Part shown: piece after piece, positions 20,101 through 45,100 of the stretch
How the letters are laid out: every line of letters starts with the position of its first letter
How positions within the stretch are numbered: position 1 is the stretch's first letter
Assembly: GCA_051362555.1 (NCBI GenBank)
Contig: CM120643.1
Span: 27,904,848 to 27,968,847 of the forward strand
Origin: Lingula anatina
Lineage: Eukaryota > Animalia > Brachiopoda
Length of the DNA: 64,000 bases
Reading direction: 5' to 3'
Made by a program: the position numbers and the translations under genes
Notes under the pieces: generated by a model
The model's input: only the letters and a program-made list of their open reading frames with translations
The model's database searches: none
Told to the model about the DNA's origin: nothing

Positions 20101-23100
20101 GCCACAACTACAACATTTCCTCTGTAATTAAAATCTTCTAATTTTAAGTGTTAAATAGGTGAGACAGGATATCTCGAGTCTTTCCCAGAAGATAATTGAA
20201 GTTTTCCGTGTCTTACTCCAGTATATGTAAAAAAATTATGACAGGTAAAACATGTCAGACTTTCGGTCTGACAAGTATGAAAATTTTGTCAAACTGAAAC
20301 AAAACCGTCAGGCAAAAACAAAATTATAGCAAGAGGCCAAATTATTTGATTTTTAAATGTTTTCAAGTATTTTAATCGTTTTTAATCAGAGACAATAAAA
20401 TCATTCAAATAAAGTGTTTTCCACACATTTCATACTTTTCAACTATCCAAGACAGTTAAATATATGTAGGCCTACTTTAATACTAAGCATACATTTATTT
20501 GTTTTACTTTACAAATACGTTGTTAGATTATTTTTATTATCCATTTTGTCATTACCATACATGTATTATATATATGTACGTGTAGCTTACAGAAAGGCTT
20601 TTCTGCATTTTTTGTAAATATATGCCCATTGAATTTTCCAATTCTCTTGTCATTGAGTTCAGAAATAAATAACTTTATTTTGTCGATAACGCGTTCAACA
20701 AGAGCCGATGTACTTTCTTCTTCGTATGTCTCTGTTGATCTTGATAATATGAGCCCCGTTTGTACAAATCAGTAATACGTAAACGGGACTGGATACATAA
20801 TAATAAAAATTTTATTAACGTCCCACTTGAAAAAAAAAAAAGAGAACCCACCCTACTAAGGGTAATGAGAGACTTAAACCTGTGATAGGCCATTTAAAAT
20901 GATCACTTATCAATAAAACACACAAAAAGGATATTACATACAAAACTTTTCAAACCTTCTCTTTGTTGTTACACAAAAAGTCGTGAAAGGTCTTGAATTT
21001 TTTGTAAGTAGAATCCCCGTGTAAAACTTCACAGCTTTTACTTTTTGTTTCCATAATCTCGTGCTTGAAGTCTTTTCTTTATTTTTAGGCCCCGGCCTAT
21101 TCTTCAATTTTTTCTTCTGATCTTTATAATATTTTTTTCTCGCATTGTTTACCCCCGAGTTCTTTTGCCGATAGTTCGTTATATATCTGTTGATTAACTA
21201 AGCATTTCTGTTTTTTATTAAAGCATCGTTGATCTTCTAATATAATAGTTTTCCTTCCCGCCTTCGAAATGTTCAGCGCAAACGCGGTGCCTTGCTTTTG
21301 ATCCAAACATGCTATATATTCCTTTCTTTCTACCATAATTTTCATTCTTACGGGTTTGTTGGGAACTTATCAAACCTCATGTGTCGATCTCGCTTACTGT
21401 TATTGTAGCAGCGGGACAAAAAGCACGTAAACCCAGCCATGGTTTTTAGGACCGCTGTAAGTGTTTCGATGTATCAGGGCTCCCCTACCCACAATGCAAT
21501 TTCCATTTCCGGAAAAGATGAAAAAGGTCAATAGACACGTGACCTTTAACGAGCACACCCTAATACTACATGTCTGTAAATTTGGTGACTTTTGGTGGTG
21601 TCTTTTCAATTTAATGGGCACTTTTTTACCTCTATGGAAATGACAGTGGAACATCGGATGTGAGGGGGTACATGTAATAAATGTGAATAAATGGTATTAA
21701 ATATACATATCTTAACCGATACTTAGTATTTTCTGTACCAATAATCATGTTAGTTATGGTATCTGTAATGAAAGTCACCATTCATAGCAATTAGCACCTG
21801 TGGTGTGATCATTTATAAATAAAAGCACATGAAACTGGGGGTGGGACAACCTTTTTGACCTATGTTGTATATTAGATACTAACGGTATGTTGTAATAGCC
21901 ACTGTAAGTCGGGCCGCAATCTTTCCTACACCCGCCTTTGCAAGCACAACCGAAAATGTTACACTTTCCGTATCCGCAGTATGGAGTTGTCTGAAACACC
22001 AAAGACCTTAAATACCAATATGATTCCTAAGACGTACCGGTACACAGGTTGGCTAAGGTTTGACATTGATGGCAGTTCTAGGAATGGAAGTACGGGTCCC
22101 ATATGATAAGTACAGGTTAAGCATCGGTTACAACCGGCCGTACGGGCTCTTACGCGCTGTTTGCATCTAAAATTTGCGCAGAATTTCACGTCCCACGCAA
22201 GTCCTTCTTACGCAATTTCGAGTTAGCAGACAGCCCGTAAGCACGTAAAGAAGATGTTGGACATGTCCAAAGGATTCTAGGAATAGCCTGCGAACAGTGA
22301 GGCCGCAAGCGTAACTTGCTCCCCTCGAAAGGAGTTAGCAAGAGAGATGCGCGTTTTGCAAGACGCACGTCGCAAGCAATAAAGGAGCAAGTGCCCTTTG
22401 CGTGTTGAGTAAGGCGCACGCCCTCACAACTAACGAACAAAGTCTAGAGCACACCGGGAATGTGTCGCACGTGCGTCACCCCCACGTCTGGTGTATAAAA
22501 GGCGTGCTCACGACGCACGCTCGTGTCTTTACAATGAACGTCGGCTGAGAAACGTGTTCAACAATTTTCAAAATTTTCAAATTTTTGTCAGTTAAGTTTC
22601 TAATATGTCTCCAAAAGGCAAGAAAAAAGAAGCTTGCCTAGTAGAAAAAGGGTGAAGGAAGAAGAAAGAAGAGGAGAACAGGAAGCAAAACTGACGTACG
22701 CCGTCAGTACGTCACTGCAAACGTGTGAGGCAAGTGTGAAGCAAAACTGACGCAAAAGGGCACTACTTTCGCCGTGCGTGGTATTCCCTTCGTAAGTAGT
22801 GAGTGTGTGCCACGTACAAACTCAAGAAATTAGTACAATTTCTACGGCCATCGCTCCTTGCAATTAGCGTCCCTGCTCGAAAGGACATCTCATGGCCCTT
22901 GCGACTCGCAAGGCAGACTTTCCTCTACCTCTACGACCTCCACGTATCCGCAACACCCAAAAATCGCAGGGGACGTACGATCCTGAAATTAGTGCGTCCG
23001 GTTATGACCGAGGCTTTGGGGTTAGTCGGAGTATTTGGTCTGTTTAGTATATGGGACGAATGTCACCTGTACAATGTAATGGGGAACCAACTATGGTTCC

Positions 23101-24085
23101 TAGCGAACTACCATTCACCATACACCGGTAGCTTTGACTTGGTAACGTCTCAAATGTGCATTTTAAAACCCTTTACACTGGGCGGCGTCCTTTCTGCGTT
23201 CTGTGTGCGACCATGAAACTGGCATCGTTGTGGTCGTGAAAAGGTTTGCAATATGAATGCTCAATGATCAGTCTCTTGTCGGTACGTAAAGTATTATTAT
23301 TTTTTTAAGCGGTACTACGGGACGCAGAAAGGACGCCGTCCAGTGTAAAAGGCGCTTTACTAACGATGACTAAACTAAAAATCTGTTCAAAGTGATATTC
23401 AAAGTAATGCCGATATAGTTATTTGATGGTGAAAAGACAGATTTCAGACACCAAATTAGTGGGCATAAATTTTACCAAACACTGTATGCTTACAGCAACC
23501 AAGTTAACGATGGAGAGTGAGTGCGTTGAAATAGTCACAAAGTTTAAGCTAGTGGTTGTTGCTTTAACTTAAGTGTGCCGAATACGAACAATCTTCTCAT
23601 CCTCTGATACCTCTAAAAATAGCATATAAAATTAAAGTAAAGGGGATGGAATAATTTTTAAGAGACAACTAGCGGACCGACCCTGTCAGAGGGTGCAATC
23701 TTAGCCGACTAGACGACAAGGGGCCATCCCCTGGGAAAATATGTCTCAATTAACGTTCACTTACGGTTCTCAGTCTGTTCTAGAACATTTGGTGTATTTT
23801 TGTACAGTTCCAATGAATGTAACAGTTCGAGAAGTGTTTTGGGAAGTCCTTCAGAATGTCCTTGAACAGATTAAGAACATTTTTCATTATAATCTAGGAC
23901 AGATTGAGAACCGTAAGTGACCGTTAAGTGAGACAATTTTTCGCAGGGGATGAACTTATGCTTACCTCTGTACAGTCCGCACACCAGCCGCGCTCCACCG
24001 ATTTACAGCACACTGCCTGGGTTTCTTTAACCACGGTCACTGTCACCATGGCAACGGCAAGTAAGGTGACGAGATAGCCAGCCAT
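17172..24085 (-). CDS. Mytimycin/Diedel-like 12-Cys prepropeptide, copy A (123 aa)
   Basis: Exons 24085-23966, 21990-21884, 17316-17172 (phases 0, 2; donors GTAAGC, GTTAGT). Protein MAGYLVTLLAVAMVTVTVVKETQA-VCCKSVERGWCADCTETTPYCGYGKCNIFGCACKGGCRKDCGPTYSGYYNIPWNGGRYYYCTCTKT-KR-SAEVQQEEDNPAENAELRNILENPENPEFGG*; same exon junctions as copy C. Confidence 0.9.
17510..18187. mobile_element. PIF/Harbinger-type non-autonomous element in intron 2 of copy A
   Basis: TIR (TA/AG)CCCCCGTCACACT, TSD TTA, empty site near 42426; same family as 33641-41719 in opposite orientation. Confidence 0.8.
18319..21867. mobile_element. Foldback (fully palindromic) Tc1/mariner-derived element, interrupted by a nested insertion
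   Basis: TA TSD, TIR CAACAT(T/A)GGTCAAAAAGGTT; left arm 18319-~18960 is the inverse of ~19050-19330 plus ~21530-21867; both arms carry degraded transposase C-termini (INLTKHLWHELK; NPDNKPTENPWHELK, cf. SPDLNPIENLW). Confidence 0.8.
19331..21530. mobile_element. Degenerate ISL2EU/Harbinger-type transposon with THAP-domain transposase relic
   Basis: TIR ACCTTTTTCATCTTTT / AAAAGATGAAAAAGGT; minus strand from ATG 21440 reads MAGFTCFLSRCYNNSKRD..FP...W and, after a frameshift, HRVCAEHFEGGK (THAP), then VKFYTG and KFLLLCIQSRLRITDL (HTH-like); convergent ORF remnant 19421-19711. Confidence 0.7.
22120..23015. mobile_element. Harbinger-like non-autonomous element in intron 1 of copy A
   Basis: TIR AGCATCGGTTACAACCGG / CCGGTTATGACCGAGGCT; absent from copies B and C. 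Confidence 0.65.
23165..23358. mobile_element. MITE shared by all three peptide-gene copies (also ~27932-28150 and ~45573-45795)
   Basis: Inverted ends CTTTACACTGG(G/A)CGGCGTCCTT / AAGGACGCCGTCCAGTGTAAA. Confidence 0.7.
23728..23949. mobile_element. CACTA/EnSpm-type MITE (CCC..GGG termini, 2-bp TSD AT), next to the copy A exon donor
   Basis: ~55-bp inverted ends CCCCTGGGAAAATATGTCTCA... / ...TGAGACAATTTTTCGCAGGGG; empty site GTCCATGA in copies B and C. Confidence 0.75.
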
Positions 24086-24556
24086 CGTCTGAAACCATTC
24101 AAAGATTGGACGCTGTTCAAGTGTACCGTTTAGACTCGTGTTTTAGTATGAAAACTGATGCTCACGACTAAAAAGTGCGAAAGTTTTCTTTCCCTACGGC
24201 CAAGTTTTCATAATCATGATAAAAATATATAGAATGTCCAGATATAGATTAAAAAGAAAATGTGTACATGTGCTCTCAAATGGACGTCAAACAATCTTCA
24301 AAAACTTATAATTACTAAAACACTGAAAATATTCCATGTGCAGAGGCCATTCATTGTCATGCAAATGATCGAGTATATATGCAGAATATGCACTGTTCTA
24401 CGCCTTGAATCTTTACGCCCAACAAGCGCTAGCATAAATACGATCCAATCTAATCGCAAAATAATCGCAAAATCCTCCACTCAATATACCAATAATATAT
24501 TTGAGACAGTGACCATAATATGCAAAGGTTTACCTTTCAAATAACCGAAAACTTAC

Positions 24557-24665
24557 CGGTGAATAAATCTTCAGAATGTCGAGAGTGGAGCTGAGAAAAC
24601 TGCTGAACACAAGTCTACCGTACGGAGAAAGTGAGACGACTGGTACTCCGTAAGCTCTTATATAA
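24557..24665 (-). promoter_or_regulatory. TATA box, initiator and non-coding exon 1 of peptide gene copy A
   Basis: TATATAA at ~24659-24665, TCACTT initiator-like motif ~30 nt downstream, donor CCG|GTAAGT after 24557 (conserved at 29325 and 46988), acceptor tttcag before 24088. Confidence 0.6.
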
Positions 24666-26049
24666 TTGAGAAAATGCAGGATAGGTTGTGCATACGCTTA
24701 TGAGCTGTGTCTCAATCTACTGGTCGTATTAGACATCTTCAAAAGATCAACATCAAAAATCAAACCCTTTTGTTTCACTGTGATATCAAACATGAAAGGA
24801 ACGAAGAAAAATAAATGTCTTGCGAAGATTCTGGTTGTCTGTTGGCACGTTCAGACTTAATGCAACTTAAACCGAATGACGTCACCAGTAATTATAACTC
24901 AGGTTTTATTGTGTGTCTCTGTGGTATCTGGTCTACGTCTTTAAGACGTCTTTACGTTAGATCAGGTCTGGAAGAAGCCTTCGCTGAGTTGTGTTTGTTG
25001 GGAAGCTAAACGGGTCATAACAGCGATCTGCTTGTGGACATAAATTGTATATATCAAAGTAAGGTTGTCCTGGGAGACGTAGATCAGATACCATAGGGAC
25101 CAATTTCAGAACCTATCGTATTTAATATAGATTGATCTATCTCCTTGGGGGTTCTCGTTAAGTTGCAATCAACTTAAGCGGCTTAGAAGTCTGTCACGCC
25201 TACTGATGCTGCTATGGGGTAATTAATTATCATTAAGAAGATTTAGTAGGCATGCCAAACATCTAAGCCACCTAAGCTCGGAGACGGTTCGAGCCTGTTA
25301 GATCGATCTAGGCATGGGACACAGTCACATACCCTAGGTTCTAGATTCCGGTATTGCCAGCTCGATCTTGATTTCATGTATAACCCATATCAGCAATACC
25401 GGCTGTAGCGAACACCATATTTGGAAGTCACAATAAAGTCTAGTACGTCACAGCTTTGTCCCCCTGGAGCTCCCATATTTGGAAGTCATGTCTCGTACGT
25501 CACAGCTTTGCCCGCCTGGAGCTGCCTTTCCCGCCTTGCGCTGATGTTATCTCTTGCAGACGAGACAAGAAGCAAAGTGGCTGACGTGGAGTTGGAAGTT
25601 TTAACTAAGAATATCTTGCAGTCGAAGGTCAGTACCACAACAAAAGCAACATTCTGCTTTACAAACTGATTTTGGTGTAGCCATTACGCAGCCCTTATAG
25701 TGGTATCGGGTGTAGCTGTCAAACTTGGCACACGTCAAGCACGTGTATTGTGTTTATACAGACTTGACATTTAATATGGAATATTTCTTTCCAAATCACT
25801 TTTCATCAAATTTTTCCTATTTAGCTGACTGATAAATGAAAATAGGGATTAAAATCGTGTTTTAATAACTTTTAATGATCTCTTTGATGTCATTGTGACA
25901 TCAGTTCATTAATTGAATTCGCCCGTGAAATGTCATACAATAACCATTAAAATCGGTATTTTGGATCTCCATATTTTAAAAATTACACGCCCCACAAAGG
26001 ACTCTCATGTCAGTGTCTAGTCACAGCTACGGTCGCTGTTACGCCTGAC

Positions 26050-27150: not shown

Positions 27151-28629
27151 CACTACCCAATTAAATCATTGCATAATACACAATACAGCAGTGCAATAGA
27201 CATGGTAGTCAGTTCATTAGTAGCTACACACCTGATTACACACTTCTTCATTCACATATTTTATATGAGATCGGATTTCTTTGAAAAAAGAACGCATTTT
27301 TACCAAGGCATACCTTCGAAACTAAAATATTCCATATTAAATGTCAAGTCTATAAATATCTTACTTGATAGACTAACGCAACTTTAAATGCTTGTTGCTA
27401 GGGTAATATGCTACCTAGCAACTGTGGCTAAGGTTAATTTGGGTTTTAATTGCCTTAAAATAGTCTAGAGTGATAGTACTGATGCCCTGAAATATAGTTA
27501 TTAGCATTTCTTAACCATTTAAACTGGACAAGAAAGGTCTAATTAGTTTGTTACTAAGGAAATTCACTTCCATAGCAACGGTTGCTAAGCAAAGCTTTGA
27601 AATTTTGGGCACTGCCTTGAAAATGATCAGCATAGTCCAAAGAACATTTGTGCCAAGTTTCATGCTTTTTCCACATTTTGAGCAATTTGGCCAATATATA
27701 GCACCAGTCACCCAGACTAATATACAGGTACACATGAATGGTGAATGGCAGTACGGGTTCCCACATGATTCGCACAGGTGGGGCGCTGAAGTAAGTGTCT
27801 GGCTTTTAGTTTCAAGTTCCGTTTTTCAAAAACGAACCTGGCAACCAGAAACTAGTGTCGTTTTTCAAGCGGACTACCATTCACCTCATACCGGTAGCTT
27901 TGACTTGGTAACGTTTCAAATGTGTATTTTAAAATCCTTTACACTGGACGGCGTCCTTACTGCGTTCTGGGTGCGCCCATGAAACTGGCATCGTTGTGGT
28001 CTTGAAAAGGAGGCACAAACATCGCTTTGGTTGCAAAATTAGTGTTCAATGATTGGCCTCTTGTGGGCACGTAAAGTGTTATTGTTTTTTTCTCTCAAAC
28101 AAGGCGGTACTACGGGACGCAGAAAGGACGCCGTCCAGTGTAAAGGGGGTATTACTAACGATGACTAAACAAAAATCTGTTCAAAGTGATATTCAAAGTA
28201 ATGCCGATATTGTTATTTGATGGTGAAAAGACAGATTTCAAACACAAAATCAATGGGCACAAATTTTACCACTGTTTGCTTACAATAACCACGTTAGCGG
28301 TGGAAGGTGAGTGCGTTGAAATAGTCACAAAGTTTAAAGGGATAATAACTCTTCGAATGAGATCTATATTTCACAATTAAAACATCGTAAACAACTCATA
28401 GAAATAAAATATATTCTGTTTTACCACAAAAACGGCAGTTATAGATATTATTCTGACATCTGAGCTTGTCATCAGACCACGTGACCTCCACAGATGGCTA
28501 TACTCTGAAAACATCTCTTAAGACATTATAACATAAAACCAAAGAAAAAAAAAACACAGGGACTAACTTTGAATGTAGAAATAGATCTTGGACGACTAGA
28601 CGACGAAGGGTCCATGAAATTTTTCTAAC

Positions 28630-28749
28630 CTTTGTACAGTCCGAACACCAGCCGATCTCAACCGCTTTACAGCACACTGCCTGGGTTTCTTTAACCACAG
28701 TCACTGTCACCATGGCAACAGCAAGTAATGTGACGAAATAGCCAGCCAT
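28630..28749 (-). pseudogene. Mytimycin/Diedel-like copy B: intact first coding exon only, own exons 2-3 missing (pseudogene or alternative first exon)
   Basis: MAGYFVTLLAVAMVTVTVVKETQAVCCKAVEIGWCSDCTK with acceptor before 28752 and donor GTTAGA; no CGxGxCNxFGC exon found between 25100 and 27350. Confidence 0.75.
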
Positions 28750-30254
28750 TGTCTGAAATCATCCAACAAATGGACGCTGTTCAAGTGTACCGTTAAGACT
28801 GTTATTTTAGAAGGAAAGACTAAAAATTTTGAAAGCTGTTTTTTTCGACAGCTGAGGTTTCAAAATCATGATAATAAAAGTTAGAATATCCAGATATGAA
28901 TTAAAAAAGAAAATGTTTACAATGCACATGTGCTCTCAAATGGATGTCAAACAATCTTCAAAAACAATGAAAATATTTCATGTGCAATATTCCTAGGCCA
29001 TGCATTGCCATGCAAGACAGTACATATACAGAATATGCACTGTTCTACGCCTTAAATCTTTACGCCCAACAACCGCAAGAAAAATACGACCCAAACTACA
29101 TGTACTTTTCTAAATTTTATATAATTTGTCTGGGGATTAAATCAGCTACGACAGAGAATGGAAAAACCATCTAAAATAATCTCAAAATCCGGATCCGATG
29201 GTTGAATTCACTCTGAAAACTCACGTTTTCTGTTGTTGTTTTTTACACTTAATATACCAATAACATATTTGAGACAGTGACCGTAAAATGCAAAGGCTAA
29301 CCTTTCAAATAACTTAAAACTTACCGGTGAGAAAAGCTTCAGAATGTCGAGAGTGGAGCTGCGAAATCTGCTGAACACAAGTCTACCGTAAGTGAGACGA
29401 AAGTGGTCGTACTAGAAATGTTTAAAAGATCAACATCAGAAACCAAACCCTTTTGTTTCACTGTGATATCAAACATGAAAGGAACGAGGAAAAACAAATT
29501 TCCTGCGAATATTCTGGTTGTCTGTTGGCACGTTCAGACTTATTGCAACTTAAACCGGAAATTAACCAACTGACGTCACCAGTAATTATTACTCAGGTTT
29601 TATTGTGTGTCTCTATGGTATCTGGTCTACGTCATTAAGACGTCTTTACGTTAGATCAGTTCTGAAAGTAGTCTTTGTTGAGTTGTGTTCGTTGTTAAGT
29701 GAACGAGTCATAACAGCGATCTGCTTGTGGACATAATTCGTATATATCAAAGTGAGGGGTTCCCGGGAGACATCCCGCACAGACTGCCACCACATGACAC
29801 CGGTGACAACTCCAGATTAGTTCACCTGAAGAAAAACTTGTGATAGGTCAAAACGTTGTGAATTTCGTTCCAACGTTAGTTCCAGTATAAGAATTTATTT
29901 TTCATTACTCTTGCTAAAATGAAAGAATAATTTGGAAAACAGAGATAAAATTTACATTTCAAAGTTCTTTGAGAAGGCTGTCGCAAAACCTTCTAAACAA
30001 AGTTACGAAAGTTGACTAAACTTCTTGTTTGTTAGAATTGTGTACCTTGTATAAAACAAAACTGAAATAATAGGTCACGTGTACATTAATGACGTGGCCA
30101 TTGGGGTTTGCAGGTGCAAAGCAGTTTTGTTCGCATATTTGAAGGGTGCCCGCAATGCTTTGACTCTAAGCATGTAGGAGAAATTGGTAATATTTGTGGA
30201 TGTAGTGTTTTGCACGAAAACAAAAGGATAAAAAGACACTAAAGACACTGTCTG

Positions 30255-30531
30255 CAGTGGCGGATTTAGGGGGTATGTCAGGGGGTCCTGATCCCTCCTT
30301 GGTTTCCTTAAAAATCACACCAACGGCTCCCACTTGAAATTAGAATTTTGACCTGCTGAATCATAGTTTTAACCCGTACCAAATGGCACAGTTCGCCCTC
30401 TAAATTACTTTCAGCGGGCCTCGAACTCCAAGCCAAGGGGGTGGGTGGGGTGGGGGAGGGTCAGGTTGGCATCCGTGGCCTGTCATTCCTAAAAGCTAAC
30501 TCCCCTTCAAATAATCTTGGATCCGCCTCTG
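30255..30531. mobile_element. hAT-like MITE (paralogous copy ~47947-48224)
   Basis: Termini CAGTGGCGGATT / GGATCCGCCTCTG flanked by GTCTG on both sides; a canonical 8-bp TSD is not evident. Confidence 0.6.
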
Positions 30532-32979
30532 GTCTGTAATCATTCAGTGACAAAGCACAAAGCAGTTAATGCTGTCAGGCATCATCATTGGTCGTACACA
30601 TAAAAATAGAGCCAGGTATGTCCGAATAATATACGTCAAGGACGACTTAAAACTCGTAGTTATGTCATCTGTTGTGGTACTTCAACAAATGATAATAATA
30701 ATACAATAACAGTTTTTGTATTTCTGACAATCACGCGGAATGCGTTATCCATCTTACAAGTCCTAATTACATTTTTAAGAAGCATTATTTTAATCCTTGA
30801 CTATGACTTCTGACAAAGTGAGCACTTGTCCTTAATTTAACCAGTGTTGTCAATCTAGAGTGGTCTGTTAAAACGTAAAAGCAGGTGCTCTTTTATAGAT
30901 GTATGTACATATAGTTTAACCTTCTGAACGTTCTGAAAGCACACGATTCGTCTTAGGACAGCAGGAAGATAACCATGTCTTTTCTCTTCTTGAAATCATT
31001 TACGAACATCAGTTAATCATTCGATGTTTTCATGTTTCATTCAACCCTGCTACTTCTACGTGCAAAGGTTCATTTGTTCACATTTTGCTTAAAAAATATG
31101 CTTTTAATATTTTCCATTAATGATCTTATTACTCAGGCCGTATTTTTAAAATGATTTTATCGGATATGATAACCCTTTTCATCCATTCCTGTTATAATTA
31201 TTCCGAAAATTATAAGGAAAGAATAAGAATAATAGGTGTACTGAAACTGTAGTGAATAGAAATGTATGCGAAAAAAGCTCGTTATATTTCCACACTATTT
31301 GCCAGCTTGATAGCATACAGGCTATACGAATCGATGCAATATACTGGTAGTTCAAAAGCACTTCAAAGGTCGTCATCAAATGACATAAATTGTAAACACT
31401 GTGAGACAAATGAATTGCTTGACGCTTGTTGAATGGAAATAAAAACAAAGCAGCAAAGCTGTCAAATGTACAGACAAAGAGCAGAAAATAAAGATGCAGA
31501 AAATTGTCATTTTGCTAATTTTGATGCAATTATAAATAATTCTTATAACAGCAGAGTCAATCAAGGAGTTATAACAGACACGAAATTTTAATCACGCACA
31601 TCAGGCAACATCTTTATTCTACTTGAAATCATTACAGAACATCAGTTAATCATTCGATGTTTTCATATCTCATTCAATCCTTTTAATCTGTCAATCTGAT
31701 TGTATTCATCAAGAGTCCCCGTGGAGTTGGATTGATCTACAGAGAACTGCAGTTTCATTGGGAATGAGCCCTTAAACCTTTCTCTTGTTACATTTGTTTT
31801 GTTTTTTTAGATTTTTGCTATTTGAAAATTAATAGATCTGGTTCGTGTTTTCTACAAACCCTTGTTACCTCTTGATATGGGGCGTCTTTTTTAATTGCAC
31901 GACCTGGAGCTTGATTTAAAATTCCCGACGCCTTTTTTTTAAACCAATAATGTGTAAATTAAAATTATATACTTTATCGATGATTTGTGGCGTATACCTT
32001 TTATACATGTAGTATTGACAAAGTATTTTGTTTAAATGCGCTGATCAACGAACTGTAGGCTTACGTAAACATAATGATGAACTGAACGGCAAAGTACGCA
32101 GTAGATCTCTTAATTCTTAGGTTTCAGCAGTTGGGCAAAATGAAATTAAATGGTAATTAATTTTGTTTCAGAGTTCTAATAGAGGTAGGTCTACACATGT
32201 ACTGTTAGTACACTAATGAACGGAACGACAAAAGATGCAGTAGATCTCTTTATTTTAAGATTTCGGCAGTTGGGCAAAATGAAATTAGGTTGTGGTGATA
32301 AGAAGTCTTAAATGCTGAACTTGGTTTTACAACCTTTTCATACTACTCGATTCAGATCACGTGGATACAGAGTACTTCACAATCTAGAAATAAAATCACA
32401 AGAACGCAACAAACCCCAATATTTAATTGAAGGCTGATAATTTATTTGCAAGCAGCAATTTACAATATAACATGTACAGAACACAGATGTGACAATATTG
32501 AAATATAGCTAAAAACATTTTAGACGCATTCGGGATTGCTGAAAGGCATTTAGGTGCCTTAAAAGCATTGAAATTAAAAAAGTATGATAATATAGAAAAA
32601 AAAGCGTTAGAATGTAAATCTCTTGAATAGGTTTTTCACATCTGAATGTGGTAATCAAAAGGATTCAATTTGCATCAGGTATGCTTCCTTTTCTCAGCTT
32701 GCGTTGTTTCACAAGATCAACTTAAGCCTTGGAAATGGCGCCATTGCTGGAAAATCAAATTTGAAACTCATCATTTATCACCAAATGCTCAAAAGTTCTA
32801 CTGGTGACACATGACACAACAATACTACCAAAGTTAGTAAAGAAATAGTAAGTAAAACACTACACTACTCCAAGTTGATGGATACAGATAAAAAAAATAC
32901 CTAACCTCGGATGTCTTTAAGCGAACGACATCTTTGTTCAAAAGCATGTTTTGTTCAAAAGCACCATCAGCCAGCCTGG

Positions 32980-35177: not shown

Positions 35178-35181
35178 AATT

Positions 35182-35201
35182 TGGTGGCAGCGGTGGGATT
35201 C
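35182..35201 (+). other. Primer-binding site complementary to the tRNA-Leu 3' end
   Basis: TGGTGGCAGCGGTGGGATTC is the reverse complement of GAATCCCACCGCTGCCA-CCA, the 3' end of metazoan tRNA-Leu(AAG/TAG). Confidence 0.85.
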
Positions 35202-35227
35202 AAAAGTTGTCACGTCCTCTAAGAATT

Positions 35228-36487
35228 ATGGCAGATGAAACTAGGATATACGACCACTCAAGACAATGGGACAGTGCTTTTGGGAGTTGTAATCCATGTT
35301 TGAGCCCGGTGTTGGATGATACTCCGCTCTTTGCAGACCCGAGGAGAAGACTGGAGTTTGAAACTCCCTGCAACACTAATCCCTTTATTACTGTTAACAC
35401 CAATCCATTCCTGGACGACGATCATTTCATCAACCCCAACCTGTTTGTGAACCAGGAGGCAGGCCGAACGATTGGATGGGAGAGGGTACCGTCTACACTT
35501 AGAGCCAAACCTGAGTATGTGTCAGAACAATTTCCTAACCCCTTTTATCCCATGCCGACCAGTATGCAGACCCGTGTCAAGGAAAAAGCAGGCCCGTCTA
35601 TTAAGCTAGGCACGTTTGATGGAAAATCTTCATGGGATGATTATAAAGCTCAATTTGACATTTGTGCCATGGTGTATCAGTGGAGTAATGAAGAGAAAAC
35701 GGGCCATTTGGCAACCAACCTACGAGGAGATGCGGCGCAAGTATTGGGCGATCTCCCACCAGAACACCGCTTTAACTACGACCTATTGACAACAGCACTA
35801 GAGAGGAGATTCAGCCCCAAAAACAGAACCGAATTTTACAGGGTGCAAGCAAGGATGAGGAAAAGGAGTCCCAAAGAAACCCTTAGTGAGTTAGCCCAGG
35901 CAATAAGGCGTTTAGTTAGCCTGGGATGGACCAATGAAACTGCTGAAGTGAAGGACACTTTTATGCGAGAGTATTTTCTAGACGCGTTAGATGATACCCG
36001 TTTGAGATTGGATGTTATGCGATATCGGCCTAGAACCATTGATGATTGTGAATCGCTAGCTATTGAATTGGAAGCTTGCCAAGATGCCGAGACTGCAAGA
36101 GGGCGGAGATTAAATTTGGTACGTTCTGCTGCTGCAATTACCCCTTCTGACGAATCTCACCCGACGGGCAAGGTGTTGGATGATGTAACTCGTTCCTTGG
36201 AAAAGATCTCATCCAAAGTGGATTTATTAGAAGCTCAAATGTTGCGAACCAAACAAGTGCCACCACCCTCTAGGACCGTGCAGTGTTTTAAATGTGGTAG
36301 GAGGGGACATTTTGCTCGAGAATGTCAAGTACTGAATGTAAAACCAGTCACTCCACCCCGTAGGAATGTCCAGTGCTTTAACTGTGGAGGATTTGGACAT
36401 GTGGCCAGAAATTGTGTACCAGTAAAAGTTGGACCCCCACCAGCACCTAGAAGAGCAGAGGCAGTCAGTGCGAATCAGTTAAACTAG
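35228..36487 (+). CDS. gag: Gag with two CCHC zinc knuckles
   Basis: First ATG 35228; FDGKSSWDDY capsid-like region; CFKCGRRGHFAREC and CFNCGGFGHVARNC. Confidence 0.95.
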   Translation: MADETRIYDHSRQWDSAFGSCNPCLSPVLDDTPLFADPRRRLEFETPCNTNPFITVNTNPFLDDDHFINPNLFVNQEAGRTIGWERVPSTLRAKPEYVSEQFPNPFYPMPTSMQTRVKEKAGPSIKLGTFDGKSSWDDYKAQFDICAMVYQWSNEEKTGHLATNLRGDAAQVLGDLPPEHRFNYDLLTTALERRFSPKNRTEFYRVQARMRKRSPKETLSELAQAIRRLVSLGWTNETAEVKDTFMREYFLDALDDTRLRLDVMRYRPRTIDDCESLAIELEACQDAETARGRRLNLVRSAAAITPSDESHPTGKVLDDVTRSLEKISSKVDLLEAQMLRTKQVPPPSRTVQCFKCGRRGHFARECQVLNVKPVTPPRRNVQCFNCGGFGHVARNCVPVKVGPPPAPRRAEAVSANQLN

Positions 36488-39400
36488 CGGCGGTTGGAGA
36501 AGAGAGGCATCGGCCAACCGTGGAGAACAGTAAGACCTCTCGACAAGATGATTCCATATTCCTTCATGTAAGTTTGTTTGGGAGGAATTGTTCATTTTTG
36601 GTGGATACCGGATCAGATCTTACAATTATTGCAGAGCGTGTGTTTTTACAGTTTCCAAAAGGAGAAAGGCCAAGTGTTAGGCCCTCAACAAAGCAGATAC
36701 AGGGAATTACGGGTACCTTCATGGACTTGAAAGGTGAGACAACTGTCCCCATGTCTATAAATAACCACAAGTTTGATATCCCAGTCATTGTTGCCGATGT
36801 ACCTTGGGAAGGTATACTTGGAATGAACGTGTTGAGACAATTACGCTGTACAATTAATTTGCAAAAACTAACTGTGACCATTGGCGAAGGGGATAGGGAG
36901 GAAATTCCGCTGATAACTGCTGAAAGAAATGGTTATCGTTGTTGCCGTGTCTCATTCAAAGAAGATACAGTTATACCCCCAAAGTCGGAGATGGTTATTA
37001 CCGGACAGCTGCATAAATCTGGTCCCACACTCACTGAGGGTATTACAGAGTCAAGATTGAAGAATAATGTACACGCGTCAGTTGCTTATGCGTTGGTTGA
37101 TCTCCGTGGGACGTCTGTTCCCCTGCGCATCATGAATAAGGGTGAATATCCTCTTAAACTTGGACGTGGAACTGTAGCAGCTTTGATAAAACCAGACGTA
37201 GCCAGTGTCATTGGGAACGAAGGACAGGTCGACCAGGCTGATGCTGAGACTACTGACCAAAGTTTACCGGCTCATATGGAACCTCTATGGGACAAAATTA
37301 AAGTAAACCTTAACCCGACAGAGGCGGAGAAAGTAGCCAGAGTACTCCGTGAAAATAGCGATGTGTTTGCAAAGGATTCAAATGATCTTGGGAAAACTGG
37401 ACTGATAAAACATACAATAAACACTGGTAACAGTCATCCAATCCGCCAGCCAGCAAGAAGAATTCCAATACATCGGGTAAAGGAAGCAGACGATGAACTA
37501 GAGAAGATGTTGTCCCAAGGTTTGGTTGAACCTTCAAGCAGTGCCTGGGCTTCACCGATAGTGTTGGTTACCAAAAAGGACGGTTCCATCAGGTTCTGCA
37601 TAGATTACCGTCGGCTGAATGATGTTACACAGAAAGATGCATATCCACTGCCTCGTATAGATGAAACGTTAGACACCTTGTACGGCGCTAAGTGGTTCTC
37701 CACACTAGACCTCATGAGCGGCTATCATCAAGTTGAGATGAGTCCAGCAGACAAGCACAAGACGGCATTCTGCACACGTCAGGGTCTTTTCCAGTTCAAG
37801 GTTATGCCATTTGGATTATGTAATGCCCCCGCGACCTTTGAACGGCTCATGGAGTTAATCTTGGCGGGCCTCCATTGGAAAACCTGTTTAATTTACTTGG
37901 ATGATGTCATCATCTTTGGAAGTACAGTAGAGCAACACCTAGAACGTCTTCAAACCGTCCTTCAGCGCCTACGACAAGCAGGACTTAAACTCAAGCCATC
38001 TAAATGCTCCCTGTTCCAAAAAGAGGTTGAGTACCTTGGACACATAGTCTCCGAACGAGGGGTAGAAACTGACCCAAACAAGACAAGAGCAGTGGTGGAT
38101 TGGCCGACTCCAAACAATGTGTCAGATGTTAGAAGTTTCCTGGGCCTCTGTTCCTATTACCGACGGTTTGTTAGAAATTTTACCAACATCGCCAGTCCCC
38201 TACATCGTCTTACTGAGAAGGATCAGCCGTTCATTTGGGGAGAAGACCAAGTATGTGCCTTTCAGAAGCTTAAATCTGCGCTCAGCACACCCCCAGTGCT
38301 GGCATTTCCAAATGCACAAGCCCAGTTTATCTTAGACACTGATGCCAGCCACCGTGGGATTGGAGCGGTGCTTAGTCAAGTTCAGGATGGCCATGAACGA
38401 GTCATAGCGTACGCAAGCAAGTCGCTTAGTAAGCCAGAGACAAGATACTGTGTAACCAGGAAAGAACTCTTGGCAGTGGTGCATTTTGTAAAGTACTTTC
38501 GGCATTATCTTTATGGAAGACATTTTCTTATCCGCACAGACCATGGGTCATTAAGGTGGCTTATGAACTTTAAGGATCCTGAGGGGCAATGGGCCCGGTG
38601 GTTGCAGGTGTTGGGAGAGTATGACTATACCATAGAGCATCGTCCTGGAACCAAGCATGCCAATGCTGATAGTCTTAGCCGGAGGCCCTGTAATCAATGT
38701 GGAGGGCAGTGTGAAGAAGAACCGACTGTTGTTAAAGGAAAATCAATTAAATGCTGTGCTTTTACCCCAGCAAGTGACTGGGTACAACCCCTCTCACCTG
38801 AGGAAATTCTATCTCTTCAATTGAAAGACCCTGTGCTAGGGAAGTTGATTGCCTGGAAGGAAAATGATAGTCGTCCAGGTGCAGATGAAATTGCATCAGA
38901 ATGTTCTACCCTGAAGAAATTTGTGAGCCAGTGGGATCATTTGTGTTTAAAGAATGGTGTTCTATACCGTCGATGGCAAATGCATGGACACCCAGTGATA
39001 CAACTAATTGCTCCTAAACCGCTGAGAAAGGATCTTTTTCAACAAATTCATGCACACCCCACAGGTGGCCACTTGGGACTTAACCGGATGATGAAGGCTC
39101 TCAAACAACGATGCTACTGGCCGTACATGAAGGTGGACGTGAGATTATGGATAAAACAATGTCACACATGTGGAGCTACCAAAAATCCACCAAGAAGAGT
39201 AAAAGCAAAATTAGGCCAGCTTCCAGTGGGTTGCACTTTGGAACGAATTGCTATTGACATAAAAGGACCACTGCATATCACTGATAGAGGTAACCGGTAC
39301 ATTATGGTTGTTAGCGATTACTTTACCAAATGGACAGAGGCATATCCGATCCCTGACCAGGAGTCGCGCACCATAGCTGAAAAGCTTGTTGAGGAGTTTA

Positions 39401-40377
39401 TCTGCCGGTTTGGAGTTCCATATCAGATTCATACCGACCGTGGCAGGAATTTTGAGTCAAATTTGATTGCTGATGTATGCTCCCTTCTGCACATACGGAA
39501 GACAAGAACCACACCATTCAGGCCTCAGAGTGACGGACTGGTAGAGCGATTTAACCGGACTATCGGGGTGATGTTGAAAGCATTTACTTCAGAACACCAG
39601 AGAGACTGGGACGAGTATCTCCCATACCTGCTTCTAGCTTATCGTTCCACCGTGCATGAAAGCACTGATATGACACCTAACATGCTTATGTTAGGTCGAG
39701 AAGTTACTATGCCGGTCGACCTGACCCTGCCATCCACTATCGAAGAGGAAGATCAGGACTTAACCGAATATGCTTGGAAACTGAAAGAGAGGATGGTATC
39801 TTCCTTTGAAACAGCCCGCATCCATTTGAGACAGGCAGCAAAAAGGCAGAAAAAGTACTATGACCGCACGGCCCGTGAGGAGAACCATAGTCCCGGTGAC
39901 TTTGTTTGGCTTTATTGTCCCAACAGAAAGAAAGGACTGTCACCCAAGTTACAGTGTCAGTGGCAAGGCCCGTTTACAGTCACACATAGAATTAGCGACG
40001 CTGTATACAAAGTTCAGAAAGGGCCACATTCTAAGAGCCAGACAGTGCATGGCGATCGACTGAAGAAGTATTACGGCACCCAGGTCCAAGCATGGTTTCA
40101 CCCCAAGGAAGAGTTCCAAGATTCCGGCGCTGATTTTACGGTATCATCTTCACCCACCGAGGAGATCCTTGACATAGAACCAACATCTGAAGAAGACGCA
40201 GCCGTGAAAAGTACTGCAGAAGAAATTAGACTGTCGCAAAATACCGACAATGACATGTCGGTATCTTCCTCACCCCCGGAGATGCCAGTGGAAGAGGAAC
40301 TCCCGTCTAGCGAAGGTATCAGTAGACGGCCACAGCGAAGAAGAAAAACACCGCCTTGGTTGAAAGATTTTATTTAA
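36478..40377 (+). CDS. pol: Pol polyprotein (protease, RT, RNase H, integrase) in the -1 frame relative to gag
   Basis: FLVDTGS protease, YLDD RT, TDAS/TDH RNase H, HHCC plus DDE integrase, GPF motif; frame is open from 36451 and overlaps the gag end. Confidence 0.97.
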   Translation, partial: VKLAAVGEERHRPTVENSKTSRQDDSIFLHVSLFGRNCSFLVDTGSDLTIIAERVFLQFPKGERPSVRPSTKQIQGITGTFMDLKGETTVPMSINNHKFDIPVIVADVPWEGILGMNVLRQLRCTINLQKLTVTIGEGDREEIPLITAERNGYRCCRVSFKEDTVIPPKSEMVITGQLHKSGPTLTEGITESRLKNNVHASVAYALVDLRGTSVPLRIMNKGEYPLKLGRGTVAALIKPDVASVIGNEGQVDQADAETTDQSLPAHMEPLWDKIKVNLNPTEAEKVARVLRENSDVFAKDSNDLGKTGLIKHTINTGNSHPIRQPARRIPIHRVKEADDELEKMLSQGLVEPSSSAWASPIVLVTKKDGSIRFCIDYRRLNDVTQKDAYPLPRIDETLDTLYGAKWFSTLDLMSGYHQVEMSPADKHKTAFCTRQGLFQFKVMPFGLCNAPATFERLMELILAGLHWKTCLIYLDDVIIFGSTVEQHLERLQTVLQRLRQAGLKLKPSKCSLFQKEVEYLGHIVSERGVETDPNKTRAVVDWPTPNNVSDVRSFLGLCSYYRRFVRNFTNIASPLHRLTEKDQPFIWGEDQVCAFQKLKSALSTPPVLAFPNAQAQFILDTDASHRGIGAVLSQVQDGHERVIAYASKSLSKPETRYCVTRKELLAVVHFVKYFRHYLYGRHFLIRTDHGSLRWLMNFKDPEGQWARWLQVLGEYDYTIEHRPGTKHANADSLSRRPCNQCGGQCEEEPTVVKGKSIKCCAFTPASDWVQPLSPEEILSLQLKDPVLGKLIAWKENDSRPGADEIASECSTLKKFVSQWDHLCLKNGVLYRRWQMHGHPVIQLIAPKPLRKDLFQQIHAHPTGGHLGLNRMMKALKQRCYWPYMKVDVRLWIKQCHTCGATKNPPRRVKAKLGQLPVGCTLERIAIDIKGPLHITDRGNRYIMVVSDYFTKWTEAYPIPDQESRTIAEKLVEEFICRFGVPYQIHTDRGRNFESNLIADVCSLLHIRKTRTTPFRPQSDGLVERFNRTIGVMLKAFTSEHQRDWDEYLPYLLLAYRSTVHESTDMTPNMLMLGREVTMPVDLTLPSTIEEEDQDLTEYAWKLKERMVSSFETARIHLRQAAKRQKKYYDRTAREENHSPGDFVWLYCPNRKKGLSPKLQCQWQGPFTVTHRISDAVYKVQKGPHSKSQTVHGDRLKKYYGTQVQAWFHPKEEFQDSGADFTVSSSPTEEILDIEPTSEEDAAVKSTAEEIRLSQNTDNDMSVSSSPPEMPVEEELPSSEGISRRPQRRRKTPPWLKDFI

Positions 40378-40432
40378 ATTGTTAGAACTGTTTTATTTCA
40401 CTGATTTTAATGGACTCGAGGACGAGTCCTGC

Positions 40433-40445
40433 GAGAGGAGGGGGC
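40433..40445 (+). other. Polypurine tract
   Basis: GAGAGGAGGGGG immediately before the 3' LTR. Confidence 0.85.
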
Positions 40446-40447
40446 AT

Positions 40448-41516
40448 TGTAATGAAACAAATTTTTAACAATCGTTATCAAAGTAATTCCTATCATTATG
40501 GGCCATAAAGACCCCCATGGGAGCGTCCGGTAAATATTTGGGCGTTTGTAACAATTGATTGATTCATGTGACTGGAACCATTACCCTCGTCAGCACTGTG
40601 GCCAATAATTCTGGCGAGTTACACAACATGAGCAGGACGACCTTGCGGAACAGAAGTAACGTTCTGGTGCTAACAACGTCTTTACGAGCTTACCTATACC
40701 CCTTCCCCTTTCATAGGTGAGAACGATAAAATTATCTCCTTACACAGAGCCCACCTCACGCTGGGTGAAGATACCACGGAAGAGACACAGAGGATACTAC
40801 TCGTTCGAGGTACCGATTGAGGGAGTTTCTACTCCCTCTGGCAGGTTCACTGGGGCGGTTGGTCGAATCTGATGGGACAAGGCTACGCTCGAGGCTCCGA
40901 TTGAGAAAGTTTCTACTTTCTCTGGCAGGTTCACTGGGGCGGTTGATTGTTGGTTAGTTAGAAAGAGTGATACGTTGGCAGGAGTACCAACGACAGGGAA
41001 AATCTCCGTCAGATTCTCCCGACAGGCTTTGCGTAGCAACGAAGGCCTGAGTTACGTTGGCTGGGGCACCAACGACGAGGGAAATATCTCCCGTGTAGAG
41101 TAGGCAGACCTTAGGCAGGAGGTCGATTAGGACAAGCGATACGTTGGCTGGGGGCACCAACGTTAAGGGATATCTCAGTCAGATTATCCCGACAGGGTCA
41201 GCGTAGCTACGGGACCCTAGGTTACCGTCGGCAGGAATAATTCCGAAGTGAAGCCCACCAGTACCAGTACGATGTTAACCGATGCCTACACCTCCTAGGA
41301 TTATTGACTTTACCTAGTAGCACCCTGGATTATGCATTTATATTAAACTCTTCATCAGTATCATTTGAATTATATCTGGACACATTGAACTTTTTCTTTT
41401 ATTGCCTCCTTACAAACTTCGTTGGATTTAAATAAAACTGTTTATTGACAAAAAGAACTGTTTCTTGGGATTGAACTTTTATTAGCACGCTACCTTTAGA
41501 CTCAAAAACCGCTACA
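40448..41516 (+). repeat. 3' LTR (1069 bp)
   Basis: Direct repeat of 34109-35177, followed by TSD ATAC. Confidence 0.97.
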
Positions 41517-42144
41517 ATACTATTCAAATGCCATTCGATAATTTTCCACTTGGAATGCACTTCGAAAGTTTTTAACATTCAGGCCGGCCATAAGAATGGG
41601 TAAAAATATTTGGAATGTACTCGGAATTTTTAGAATGCTCTTCGAATATCCAGGAACGCACAAAAAATTGTCTTTCCGACGGCATTCTTGCTCATTCAGC
41701 CTCTAGTCTGACGGGGGTATGATCAAGAATTGCAAGAACTGACTACGATTATATACGAATCTGTTTAGAACTTCACGAATCCTGAAATTTGTCAATTCCT
41801 GGCGATTCGTGGGTTTCGTGGTCTGTGTGAAATAGGGGCATAACTCGAAAGCATCGCGAATTGCGAATAGCGATATCACCTTTTTTATTTGGGGTGAGTA
41901 TGGGCTAGTTACGGAATCGAGACGCTTGCACTCGGTCGCAATGCACGATGCTTTCGAGTTACGGGGCCCTTGTGTCACATTAAAATCACGTCACTAAATC
42001 AAGGGACAAGCAAGGTCCAGTCACCACGCCGTATCAAGGTGAATGGTTGCACTTATACTGGAATACTGAAGCACAACGTTAAAAATGCTGATGCAGTCGT
42101 TTAATCTTACCATGTTATAAGCCCCTCTTCTTTACCTGCCAAAT

Positions 42145-45100
42145 TCAGGCGTTTTCAGACGAATTTTCCTCTTCTAGCTGGTCTTCAGCTGATCTCTTAT
42201 TCTTCGGGCATATGCAGAAAGAGTATATTCGTTCAGTGAATCTGAAAAGTATAAAAGGTTCTGACTCTTTTAATGCATATTTCTCCTATATTCCATTTAA
42301 ATAATAATGAAACGTAATTTATCTACGCGTTTACCGAAAATTGGTGTAAACTACAAGTGCTAAATATTTATCTTGAAATAAAGTAGAATGCATTTTTCTA
42401 TCCAAAATTGAAGACAAATTGGTGTTTATAATATTAAAGCATTATTTTATGATGATAATAATAATTAGAGAAACACAGAGAATACACACTGCCAAAACAT
42501 CTCAATTCACATTATTATTAGTTGTTAACTAAACAATCCGTATATAGATCACCACCAAAATCTAACAGTTTCTGAAAATATCAGCAAATTCCGTCCATAT
42601 TTTTATATCATGCTGCTAACAAAAAATGAGAAAGACAGGTAATCGGAACCAAAAATAGGATCCTCTTGGTGAAGGTAAAAAAAATAGGTCTAACCCTCAA
42701 GGTCTATTTCAGGCTAGGGTAAACCACCATGAAAGGAAGTTATATCGTTATATTTCGTGGTCAGATATATAATTATGACACTTTTCTATATCTATAGTGC
42801 CTGGATATATATATATATTAGATACTAACTCATGGGTGTTATGGCCAAAGAACACTGGGCCGCAATCTTTCCTACACCCGCCGTCGCAAGCACAACCGAA
42901 AAGGTTACACTCTCCGTTTCCGCAGAATGGAGCTGCCTGAAACACCAAAGACGCTTTATAGTCTAGATGACTGGTGCAAAAATTGCTCAAAAGCTGGAAA
43001 AAGCATGAAATGTTTTATGGACTATGCTGATCATTTTCAAGCAATTTTAAAGCGTTGCTTAGCAACCGTTGCTAAGGAAGTTATTTACCTTAGTAACAAG
43101 CTAATTGGACCTTTCTTGTTCAGTTTAAATGATTTAAAAAGGCTTTTAATAATGTTTCAAGCTATCATAACTATCTCTTTAATATTTGTAGCCATTAAAA
43201 GCCTAAGTAAACCCTTGCAACAGTTGCTAGGCAGCATATTACTCTAGCAATAATTTAAGTATTTAACATTATATATTTAATAATTTATATTTATATATTT
43301 AATAATTATTAAAATTATATATATAGCTTTTTACATATTCTCCAGTTCCTTTCCATATTTTTGTTCCCATTCTACATATACTTACACGTTTCTTAATTAT
43401 TAAGATAGGTACATAAATATTGTATGCTTGCACAAACCCAAATACAAATATCTCCGGAGATCTATCAATGACCACACCTAAATTATCTTTAGCGGGGCAA
43501 ATGATGCACATCCAAACATTTTTTACATGTGAACAATCCCAAAAAACATACAGAATATTTCCGTAGCGGTACTGCAAAATTCCCAAATTCATAAGATAAA
43601 CATAAGTATTGAATAGTCTATGATTTATTCTGAATTGGATCAACTTCACTTTCGTGTGATCTGTTTCTTAAATGTTATTTCCCAAATATCAGTACTCAAG
43701 GTTTTTTTTTTAAATATGTCTGCCATTCACCTACACCTTTATCTAGTGATATTATATGGCTTTGGAGGATTTTTTGCGAAAAAAATCTGGATGGTTTGGT
43801 AACTTGTTTAATTGAGTCAATTATTTCTTGGAATGCTATGTGTAATTTCCTTCCATGGAAAGAGCCATTCAGATGGTAAGTTCTTTCGAATTCTGCATTA
43901 GCCCAGAAAGTTAGTGTTAAGGTTGATTTTTTGTTGAGTTCCTCTAGAGAGAGTGGATTTCAAATGTCATTTATAATATCATTGATATAAAAAATAGTTT
44001 TTCAATTTCTTTCAATTTTTGAGTTTTGACATAATGGTTGTGACAGGATTTCATCTGGGGTTAAATTGGGATTTTCCTGAATTTCAATCAAAGAACCAAT
44101 AATCTTTGCCAAAAGGGATTAGTAGTTGCTTTTAGTATTTTTAATCCACCTTTTGTAACTACCGATTCCTGACATTTCGCCGAGAAAAACGCTTTCCACT
44201 TACTCTTATTTTCTTTATAAAGAAGTCTTTTAAGACATGTAAAGATTAGGGCCTTAGTAAAATTTTTATTTGCGGTACCTTTTACCGTCCATTTTTGTAA
44301 TCAGACGCCATCCTTGCTCATTTTATTTTTCATCTTTTCCCATTCCTCATAAAGTTAAAAATGATATGCATATTTTAAAGTATTGAGGGAGGGGGGGGTA
44401 GGAGAATTTATACATTCACTACGTAAGATGTGAAATAATAAAGGTTTAACCACTGTTGACTTTCCAGATTTCCAAGATATTTTTTATTTTGTTCAATATT
44501 TTCTAACAAGTTTTTTCACATTGTATTTTGTCAGTTTCTATTCTCTACCAAGTAACTTAAATACACCTTCATGGTTCTATTTTAATTCTTTTTTTTAATC
44601 AATGAAGTTCAAAAGTTTCTGTTCACACCCAAAGGCCGTTAGATGCCATATCTTACTTCCACCAAGGCTGCTCTACAACAATATAAGAGTATTCTTGCGA
44701 GATGAACATATCTGAATCAGCACTACGGTGCCATGTCATCAGATACCATGTGCTCACTCTGGTTGGACTTGTGCGGAACAGTGGACCCTTGTGGACACAT
44801 TTGCCAGAAGCTATTGACCTGCCCAGAGTTGCCCCAGTGTGCATGTAGGTTTTATAAAGAGTCGTAAGGTGATAAAAGAATGGAAATGACTAACTTTGAA
44901 TTCGCACATGCTGCCTTGCGGCAATGTTTTTGATCGGATGTGTGTAAACATCACACAGTTTTTTCAACTTACTGGATTAAAAGTATGAATATCTTGCTCA
45001 AAAGTGTAGTTCTTAGCTAGTATTATAGATTTGCCTTACTTAATAGACTAACGCAGCTTTGAATGCTTGTTGCTAGGGTAATATGCTACCTAGACACTGA

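Follow-up and report, generated by a model that had tools for sequence, protein, structure and literature searches.

A tandem pair of Diedel-domain, mytimycin-like peptide genes in Lingula anatina and the divergence of their Cys10-Cys11 loop

Known relatives and gene structure

Mytimycin inhibits fungi and is described as having no homologs among the known antimicrobial peptides (PMC10608444), and in 2021 the mytimycins were described as restricted to Mytilida, their fold being unsolved (PMC8004829). Diedel of Drosophila is a secreted cytokine opposing apoptosis (PMC6072105) and an integrin ligand (PMC9116668); its SD2 sub-domain is made of N-terminal residues and a loop tied by four disulfides, and the exposed Ile78-Phe79 was proposed as its binding site (PMC3307722). 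Here we describe two tandem genes, A and C, of the brachiopod Lingula anatina, located in a stretch of 64,000 nucleotides (the window; assembly GCA_051362555.1, contig CM120643.1, positions 27,904,848 to 27,968,847, forward strand). Their products belong to the Pfam family of Diedel, and their non-synonymous divergence exceeds that of the aligned non-coding DNA in the loop between Cys10 and Cys11. We consider it probable that A and C are secreted mytimycin-like defence peptides, in which positive selection acts on a hairpin carried by a stable knot, with the greatest shift in C.

Both genes are encoded by the minus strand, with coding spans at 17172-24085 (A) and 42145-46407 (C); the interval 21884..42936 given in the initial annotation reaches only from exon 2 of A through exon 2 of C. 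The precursors comprise 123 (A) and 107 (C) amino acids, their frames are open, and all exon edges carry AG/GT. Coding exon 1 of A (23966..24085), an ATG-started open frame followed by a GT donor, encodes a predicted 24-residue signal peptide and the first 16 mature residues with Cys1-4, and aligns with the signal and N-terminus of annotated Lingula paralogs; the signal cleavage site was placed by homology. Exon 2 (21884..21990, AG/GT edges) encodes the Diedel/mytimycin core with Cys5-10 (PF13164) and the first half of the variable loop, while exon 3 (17172..17316) encodes the second half of the loop, Cys11-12, a Lys-Arg site and an acidic pro-piece ending at TAA. In the region of exon 3, the stretch 17266-17483 recurs without any difference in a contig of DNA run X1. 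The exons of C lie at 46288..46407, 42830..42936 and 42145..42241, the last one ending in a short acidic pro-piece and TGA. The hypervariable loop, a predicted beta-hairpin, occupies codons 66-84 and is split by intron 2 (21915-21884 and 17316-17292 in A; 42861-42830 and 42241-42217 in C). A non-coding first exon of A, with a GT donor after 24557, is predicted from the sequence at 24557..24720 of the same strand. That A and C could be alleles or haplotigs is ruled out by their 13% non-coding divergence, different insertions and tandem order.

Exon 2 passes the PF13164 cut-off (21.3 bits) in both genes, with 28.7 bits for A and 26.5 for C, and exon 2 of C matches the Diedel crystal structure PDB 3ZZO at E=1.3e-5; in the profile search this structure was matched at E=1.7e-7, and 10 of the 12 members of the family alignment match PF13164 at E<=0.01. 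Exon 2 of A, searched against 1.84 billion representatives, gave 31 matches, 20 of which were looked up (6 from Lingula, 2 fungal, one Chlorella 'Diedel', 11 unnamed); a profile search gave 24 (10 from Lingula, one each from Drosophila and Branchiostoma, 12 unnamed). A word-seeded homolog search with the exon-2 frame of C gave no match, and a search of the ESM Atlas no usable one. Identity with Myticin-prepro was rejected (14 bits at a cut-off of 28.5), and one repetitive chance match (P0123) was kept out of the alignments. The same cysteine core was found in Alternaria, Infundibulicybe, Chlorella and Branchiostoma (P0152, P0144, P0133 and P0166), several of these proteins having EF-hand-like tails; this range is far wider than that given for Diedel (PMC3307722) or mytimycin (PMC8004829).

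A and C have the 12-Cys array found in type II mytimycins (PMC8004829, Table 1), and their cysteine spacings are 7-2-6-4-4-1-3-3-19-1, the last two differing from those of mussels. In the core, A and the Perumytilus mytimycin Perpur_1 have 26 of 29 residues identical, as counted by eye from the supplement of PMC8004829. Both precursors have a hydrophobic N-terminus, Lys-Arg after the mature peptide, predicted to be cleaved, and a tail rich in Glu and Asp. All 15 other Lingula records (14 loci; some of the records are maybe alleles) share the 12-Cys spacing, while the loops of the 17 Lingula sequences have 10-21 residues and are poorly conserved. The representative and profile searches did not return A and C themselves, the best identity over the mature part being 43/66 to A and 34/66 to C; annotated paralogs include XP_013386436 and XP_013416208, named by NCBI 'Diedel-like' and 'Diedel', and LOC106180165/6. 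In a tree of 32 proteins, which includes no named mussel sequence and whose deep branches are weakly placed, A and C are sisters (100/97) and group with LOC106180165/6 (97/88).

As for the fold, the protein modelled was a paralog of A and C (P0156). The AlphaFold model, built with 48 sequences, has a mean pLDDT of 79, with 85-90 over the mature part, and its strands 68-74 and 83-89 enclose the loop as a hairpin. The only Foldseek matches of this model were the Diedel crystals 3ZZR and 3ZZO, on which it superposes over 31 residues at 1.1-1.2 Å (probability 0.94-0.99). The disulfide pairing of A and C would follow that of Diedel SD2.

Divergence between the two genes

With exons delimited by coordinate, our recount agreed with the initial annotation: among the 35 complete codons of exon 2, 14 differ non-synonymously and one purely synonymously (CCG/CCA, codon 67), the signal peptides are identical at 23 of 24 residues and the mature peptides at 37 of 66, and all 12 Cys occupy identical positions. 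The Cys10-Cys11 loop is indeed mostly replaced (15 of its 19 residues differ), 2 of the 17 residues quoted earlier as an almost complete replacement being the same.

These counts had been read as strong diversifying selection between the two paralogs. We compared the two genes, A and C only, at the DNA level by the NG86 method with the Fisher test, by likelihood-ratio tests under the GY94 model with free kappa, and under GY94 anchored on the non-coding divergence (d=0.139; kappa set to 2.5, close to the ratio in non-coding DNA). Judged by the synonymous sites of the genes themselves, NG86 gave a ratio of non-synonymous to synonymous rates (ω) of 2.9 for the mature peptide (p=0.014) and 2.7 for the coding sequence (p=0.012), and GY94 gave p=0.02-0.03 and p=0.015, respectively, so that for the whole mature peptide ω is 2.9-3.7 at p=0.014-0.03; when anchored on the non-coding divergence, it is 2.4 (p=1e-5). 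The count in exon 2 alone is not significant, and positive selection is supported for the mature peptide and for the loop against non-coding sequence.

The non-coding reference, taken from the gap-free sites of six aligned blocks, differs at 262 of 2070 positions (0.127). Intron divergence is thus not equal to the non-synonymous divergence of the mature peptide (0.247, p=1e-4), and this check, proposed in the initial annotation as a possible refutation, leaves selection standing. The non-synonymous divergence of the loop is 0.50 (p=1.5e-8), about four times the non-coding rate, that of the mature peptide outside the loop 0.15 (p=0.56) and that of the signal peptide 0.02 (p=0.01), while the synonymous divergence is 0.071 (p=0.15); for the signal, the mature peptide without the loop, the loop and the pro-piece, anchored ω is 0.14, 1.27, 7.5 and 1.0, respectively. 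The loop has 24 differences in its 57 bases. The densest 57-base window of the coding sequence has 25, a value never reached when the non-coding rate was simulated 100,000 times, and the densest window across the six non-coding alignments has 14. The loop excess persists when multi-hit codons are dropped (10 of 30 sites, p=0.003) and when adjacent differences are merged (p=0.002). The excess is therefore real but narrower than was claimed, as it sits in the Cys10-Cys11 loop. A local mutational hot spot was rejected as its cause: the edges of intron 2 are identical in A and C, and the loop changes lie on both sides of it.

The net charge (K+R-D-E) is +4 for A and -1 for C, with predicted isoelectric points of 8.5 and 6.1. 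This reproduces the charge shift noted initially; however, of the 8 sites at which it arises only 4 belong to the loop, the other 4 being in the core, and what had been called a charge switch consists mainly in C having lost positive charge, because most of the core changes are C-derived. C has the lowest charge among the 17 Lingula sequences, the others ranging from 0 to +8, and two other paralogs are likewise neutral, with isoelectric points of about 6. The end branches of the tree are 0.09 for A and 0.45 for C, and of the 11 differences in the core, 6 are called as derived in C and 3 as derived in A, the other 2 being ambiguous; at T42A, Y44F and I52L in C, the residue of A is kept by 10, 12 and 11 of 12 other paralogs, respectively. 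The relative-rate test of C against A gave p<0.05 with only one of 12 outgroups.

Transcripts and surroundings of the genes

Two RNA runs, X18 and X20, from other individuals and of unstated tissue, provided few reads: 25 from X18 and 20 from X20 aligned to 42120-42955, an intron repeat accounting for about 17 of them. The exon 2-3 joint of C is bridged from 42835 to 42226 by two X18 reads, the 20 letters between being the length expected after the modelled splice, and a further six reads, three from each run, end loosely at this joint. In four reads of X20, the loose ends pass from exon 2 into the sequence of exon 1. Both coding splice joints are thus supported by spliced C-like transcripts; at low depth, the reads show transcription and the modelled splicing for a C-like relative, which is not proof for the A or C of the window itself. 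At 7 of 8 listed exon-2 sites where A-type DNA differs, these transcripts, read by hand, match C. Over codons 75-81, 11 of their 21 bases and 6 of their 7 residues are not those of C, with one synonymous change (2-3 reads each), and two types of C-like transcript in X18 differ from each other by 2 non-synonymous and 0 synonymous changes (2-3 reads each, by hand). These data support an independent second turnover of the loop tip in the C-like transcripts. As to DNA, 0 of 8 contigs of run X3 and 2 of 20 of run X5 are at least 95% identical on the C stretch, which hints at presence/absence or at divergent alleles of C, contig gaps not being proof. One X3 contig (record 8), aligned at 42862-42911, represents another paralog from outside the window with a different start of exon 2.

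A TATA-like box (24664-24657) sits in a block of about 100 bp (24621-24720) of A, from which B, a third, partial copy, and C are free; the short form without the block also occurs in X1 contigs. Judging by its sequence, the block may have a promoter role for A. The partial copy B (27360..31608, minus strand) retains the upstream region, the exon of the untranslated region and coding exon 1 (28630-28749) and lacks exons 2 and 3; single-exon tblastn accordingly gave three matches for exon 1 and two for each of exons 2 and 3. B differs from the 5' block of C (45035-49345) by 4.4% substitutions, and its intact exon 1 differs from that of C by 2 synonymous and 0 non-synonymous changes. Being upstream of exon 2 of A, exon 1 of B is a candidate alternative first exon, which would join a start of the C type to the core and loop of the A type.

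Just downstream of C, within a repeat that has its other copy in intron 2 of A, lies a Ty3/Gypsy-type long terminal repeat (LTR) retrotransposon (34109-41516, plus strand) with open gag (35147-36487) and pol (36451-40377) frames and a 4-bp target duplication; its repeats of about 1070 bp are 100% identical, by which the element is to be judged very young. A 3.5-kb insertion with inverted ends (18316-21870; 85% over 339 bp), about 14 bp into intron 2 of A beside the splice donor, is likely a DNA transposon. Two long frames of the minus strand lie farther away. The unbroken 804-codon frame at 5849-8263, with HYR-like repeats (PF23237), has as the top of 114 matches the L. anatina gene LOC106169068 (98% identity over 43% of the query), which is the only named animal among the 114 matches of the word-seeded search; the other named ones are prokaryotic, mostly from Bacteroidota, at about 30% identity, and many are unnamed. 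This frame is a candidate for gene transfer from bacteria to brachiopods. The 796-codon frame at 61125-63515, rich in Gln, Pro and Met, has a terminal Kunitz domain (PF00014, 64.5 bits) and presumably resembles shell-matrix proteins.

Possible explanations and comparison with mytimycin and Diedel

We suppose that A and C arose by tandem duplication of a precursor gene of the mytimycin/Diedel family. The predicted signal peptide would direct secretion, and a convertase would cut at the Lys-Arg site and remove the acidic pro-piece, leaving a mature peptide of 66 residues and 12 cysteines. Eight of the cysteines could form the Diedel SD2 knot with an exposed Asn-Ile/Leu-Phe tip, while the last ones would pin a 19-residue beta-hairpin projecting from the knot, so that the core would serve as a stable fold with a shared binding face and the hairpin as a variable contact surface. 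After the duplication, positive selection is likely to have remodelled this long exposed loop. A would have retained the ancestral cationic core, while C, which differs in the putative promoter block, would have changed more and lost five net charges; its changes may fit a move to a new target with some relaxation of the core. By analogy with mytimycin, a microbial target is likely, with a fungus or another eukaryotic pathogen as the most plausible one. The initial annotation had spoken of selection as in antimicrobial peptides and toxins: a defence peptide fits the mytimycin-like family, while nothing points to a toxin. The loop may, as was suggested there, set the target specificity.

Several results weigh against the reading of A and C as positively selected defence peptides. 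A defence role is likely by analogy with mytimycin only, Diedel itself being a signalling/matrix protein; no match of the representative or profile searches was named mytimycin, and the Foldseek matches of the paralog model have weak E values (0.056-0.24). Expression of the two genes themselves found little backing: none of the 45 RNA reads on 42120-42955 was at least 95% like C, and RNA aligned to gene A gave no clear expression, intron repeats dominating and exon joints being absent. On its own synonymous sites, exon 2 has ω 2.7 at p=0.085 by NG86 and p=0.08 by GY94, and the loop alone is not significant with free kappa (p=0.15-0.18); the 47 mature codons outside the loop are near neutral relative to introns (ω 1.1-1.3, p=0.36-0.56). 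Dropping multi-hit codons brings the whole mature peptide to p=0.06 and exon 2 to p=0.21, and the loop excess is lost (p=0.16) once differences up to 2 bases apart are merged, though such merging saturates in a dense region. The loop was, moreover, chosen post hoc, a choice for which the scan of the whole coding sequence corrects. Finally, the changes fall mostly on C, and relaxed constraint therefore contributes; partial relaxation also fits the asymmetric core changes of this gene.

In its full form, the latter argument holds that C is decaying and that relaxed constraint together with clustered mutations (a multi-base event or a compensated frameshift near the exon 2/3 joint) mimics selection. 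The long branch of C, its substitutions at core residues held by most paralogs, the core ω of about 1.1-1.3, the lack of the TATA-containing block, the LTR element and broken copy B adjoining C, and the eight mature codons with 2-3 differences, where the read aligner placed gaps, all agree with decay. However, a loop rate four times that of the introns is beyond what relaxation can produce, and an excess remains with single-hit codons alone (p=0.003). All 12 Cys, the splice sites and the reading frame are intact, which would occur by chance with a probability of 0.015 for both lineages and 0.12 for one, C-like transcripts are spliced, the loop tip was re-turned in them almost only by non-synonymous change, and the dense region lies on both sides of an intron with identical edges. 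Considering all this, we find decay of C quite improbable. Gene conversion may also be considered, by which the divergent loop would have been imported from a paralog or allele of greater age; the flanks would then understate its age, and possible donors are at least 14 other loci and the further paralog in run X3. Yet the synonymous divergence of exon 2 is low, with one purely synonymous codon in 35, the intron remnants on both sides of this exon are collinear (82-94%, transposon insertions skipped), the intron beside exon 3 is at background (0.127), and none of 15 paralog loops matches that of C. Moreover, the loop spans an intron, and one DNA tract therefore cannot cover it. On the collinear introns, the low synonymous divergence and the split loop, an older imported tract was rejected and has, in our opinion, hardly any chance of being the cause; with the edges of intron 2 identical and the intron remnants around exon 2 collinear, a single conversion tract fails together with a mutational hot spot.

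It is also conceivable, albeit unlikely, that the selection is real while the peptides serve, like Diedel, as ligands in signalling or in the matrix, or have a role in reproduction or towards symbionts, the loop tracking a host receptor or a pathogen decoy. C is anionic, and an anionic charge is unusual for a membrane-active peptide. The family match is to Diedel, a cytokine (PMC6072105) and integrin ligand (PMC9116668), whose proposed binding patch Ile78-Phe79 (PMC3307722) is kept in A and C. Both peptides, however, lack RGD and SD1, their layout and core sequence are much nearer to mytimycin, the fungal inhibitor (PMC10608444), and a mostly cationic family of about 14 loci fits effectors.

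Apart from the defence reading of A and C, we tentatively put forward a wider and less assured possibility, namely that mussel mytimycins, fly and viral Diedel and the brachiopod family form one ancient SD2-knot family, present also in amphioxus, fungi and green algae, in which the disulfide-pinned Lingula hairpin, similar to an antibody complementarity-determining region, is repeatedly rewritten by positive selection in each paralog or allele for its own microbial target. If this holds, mytimycin would acquire the fold that it has lacked, together with a variable-loop scaffold of natural origin. Fast-evolving loops on the cysteine scaffolds of defence peptides and positive selection on their paralogs are well known, and the selection is therefore ordinary in kind. 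New are the proposed link between mytimycin and Diedel, with SD2 as the candidate fold, and, in a brachiopod, a family comprising about 16 loci, of which some have EF-hands. In the literature searched, subscription papers being outside it, no paper was found for Diedel with mytimycin, for 'mytimycin-like' or for Lingula anatina with Diedel, and PF13164 was not mentioned in the papers listed for it; mytimycin and brachiopod do co-occur. A 2018 survey of Lingula immunity may already include this family. Young and differing chiefly in charge and in a single predicted hairpin, A and C form a natural pair with which it can be tested directly what mytimycin and Diedel peptides bind and through which face.

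In comparison with Diedel (Drosophila CG11501, 3ZZO/3ZZR; PMC3307722), A and C are likewise predicted to be secreted and share the N-terminal CC, a putative SD2 cysteine knot and the conserved Asn-Ile-Phe tip, in the form Asn-Ile/Leu-Phe; since this tip is kept in both, the loop is not the sole candidate binding face. They differ from Diedel in four further cysteines, a C-terminal hairpin and a pro-piece predicted to be cleaved, and, with only 7 residues between Cys2 and Cys3, they are devoid of the ferredoxin-like sub-domain SD1 and of RGD, and therefore are not Diedel orthologues in the functional sense. With type II mytimycins they share a signal peptide of 23-24 residues, the CC-C-C-C-C-C-C-C-C-C-C array, a dibasic site followed by an acidic extension, the organization as a multigene family and the non-coding first exon, which is predicted in Lingula (PMC8004829). 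Apart from the host, a brachiopod, the differences concern the Cys9-Cys10 gap (3 residues in A and C, 8 in mussels), the Cys10-Cys11 loop (19 and about 6-9, respectively; PMC8004829) and the EF-hand, which is absent from A and C, exon 3 of A having no Pfam match and the tail of C only 15 residues; A and C are therefore filed as mytimycin-like rather than as mytimycins. EF-hand pairs are present in the Lingula paralogs P0119 and P0150, and one mussel mytimycin sequence also lacks the EF-hand (PMC8004829). Finally, while the loop of the Lingula pair has probably been rewritten by positive selection, mussel mytimycins evolve mostly under purifying selection, with 8 of 67 codons weakly positive (PMC8004829).

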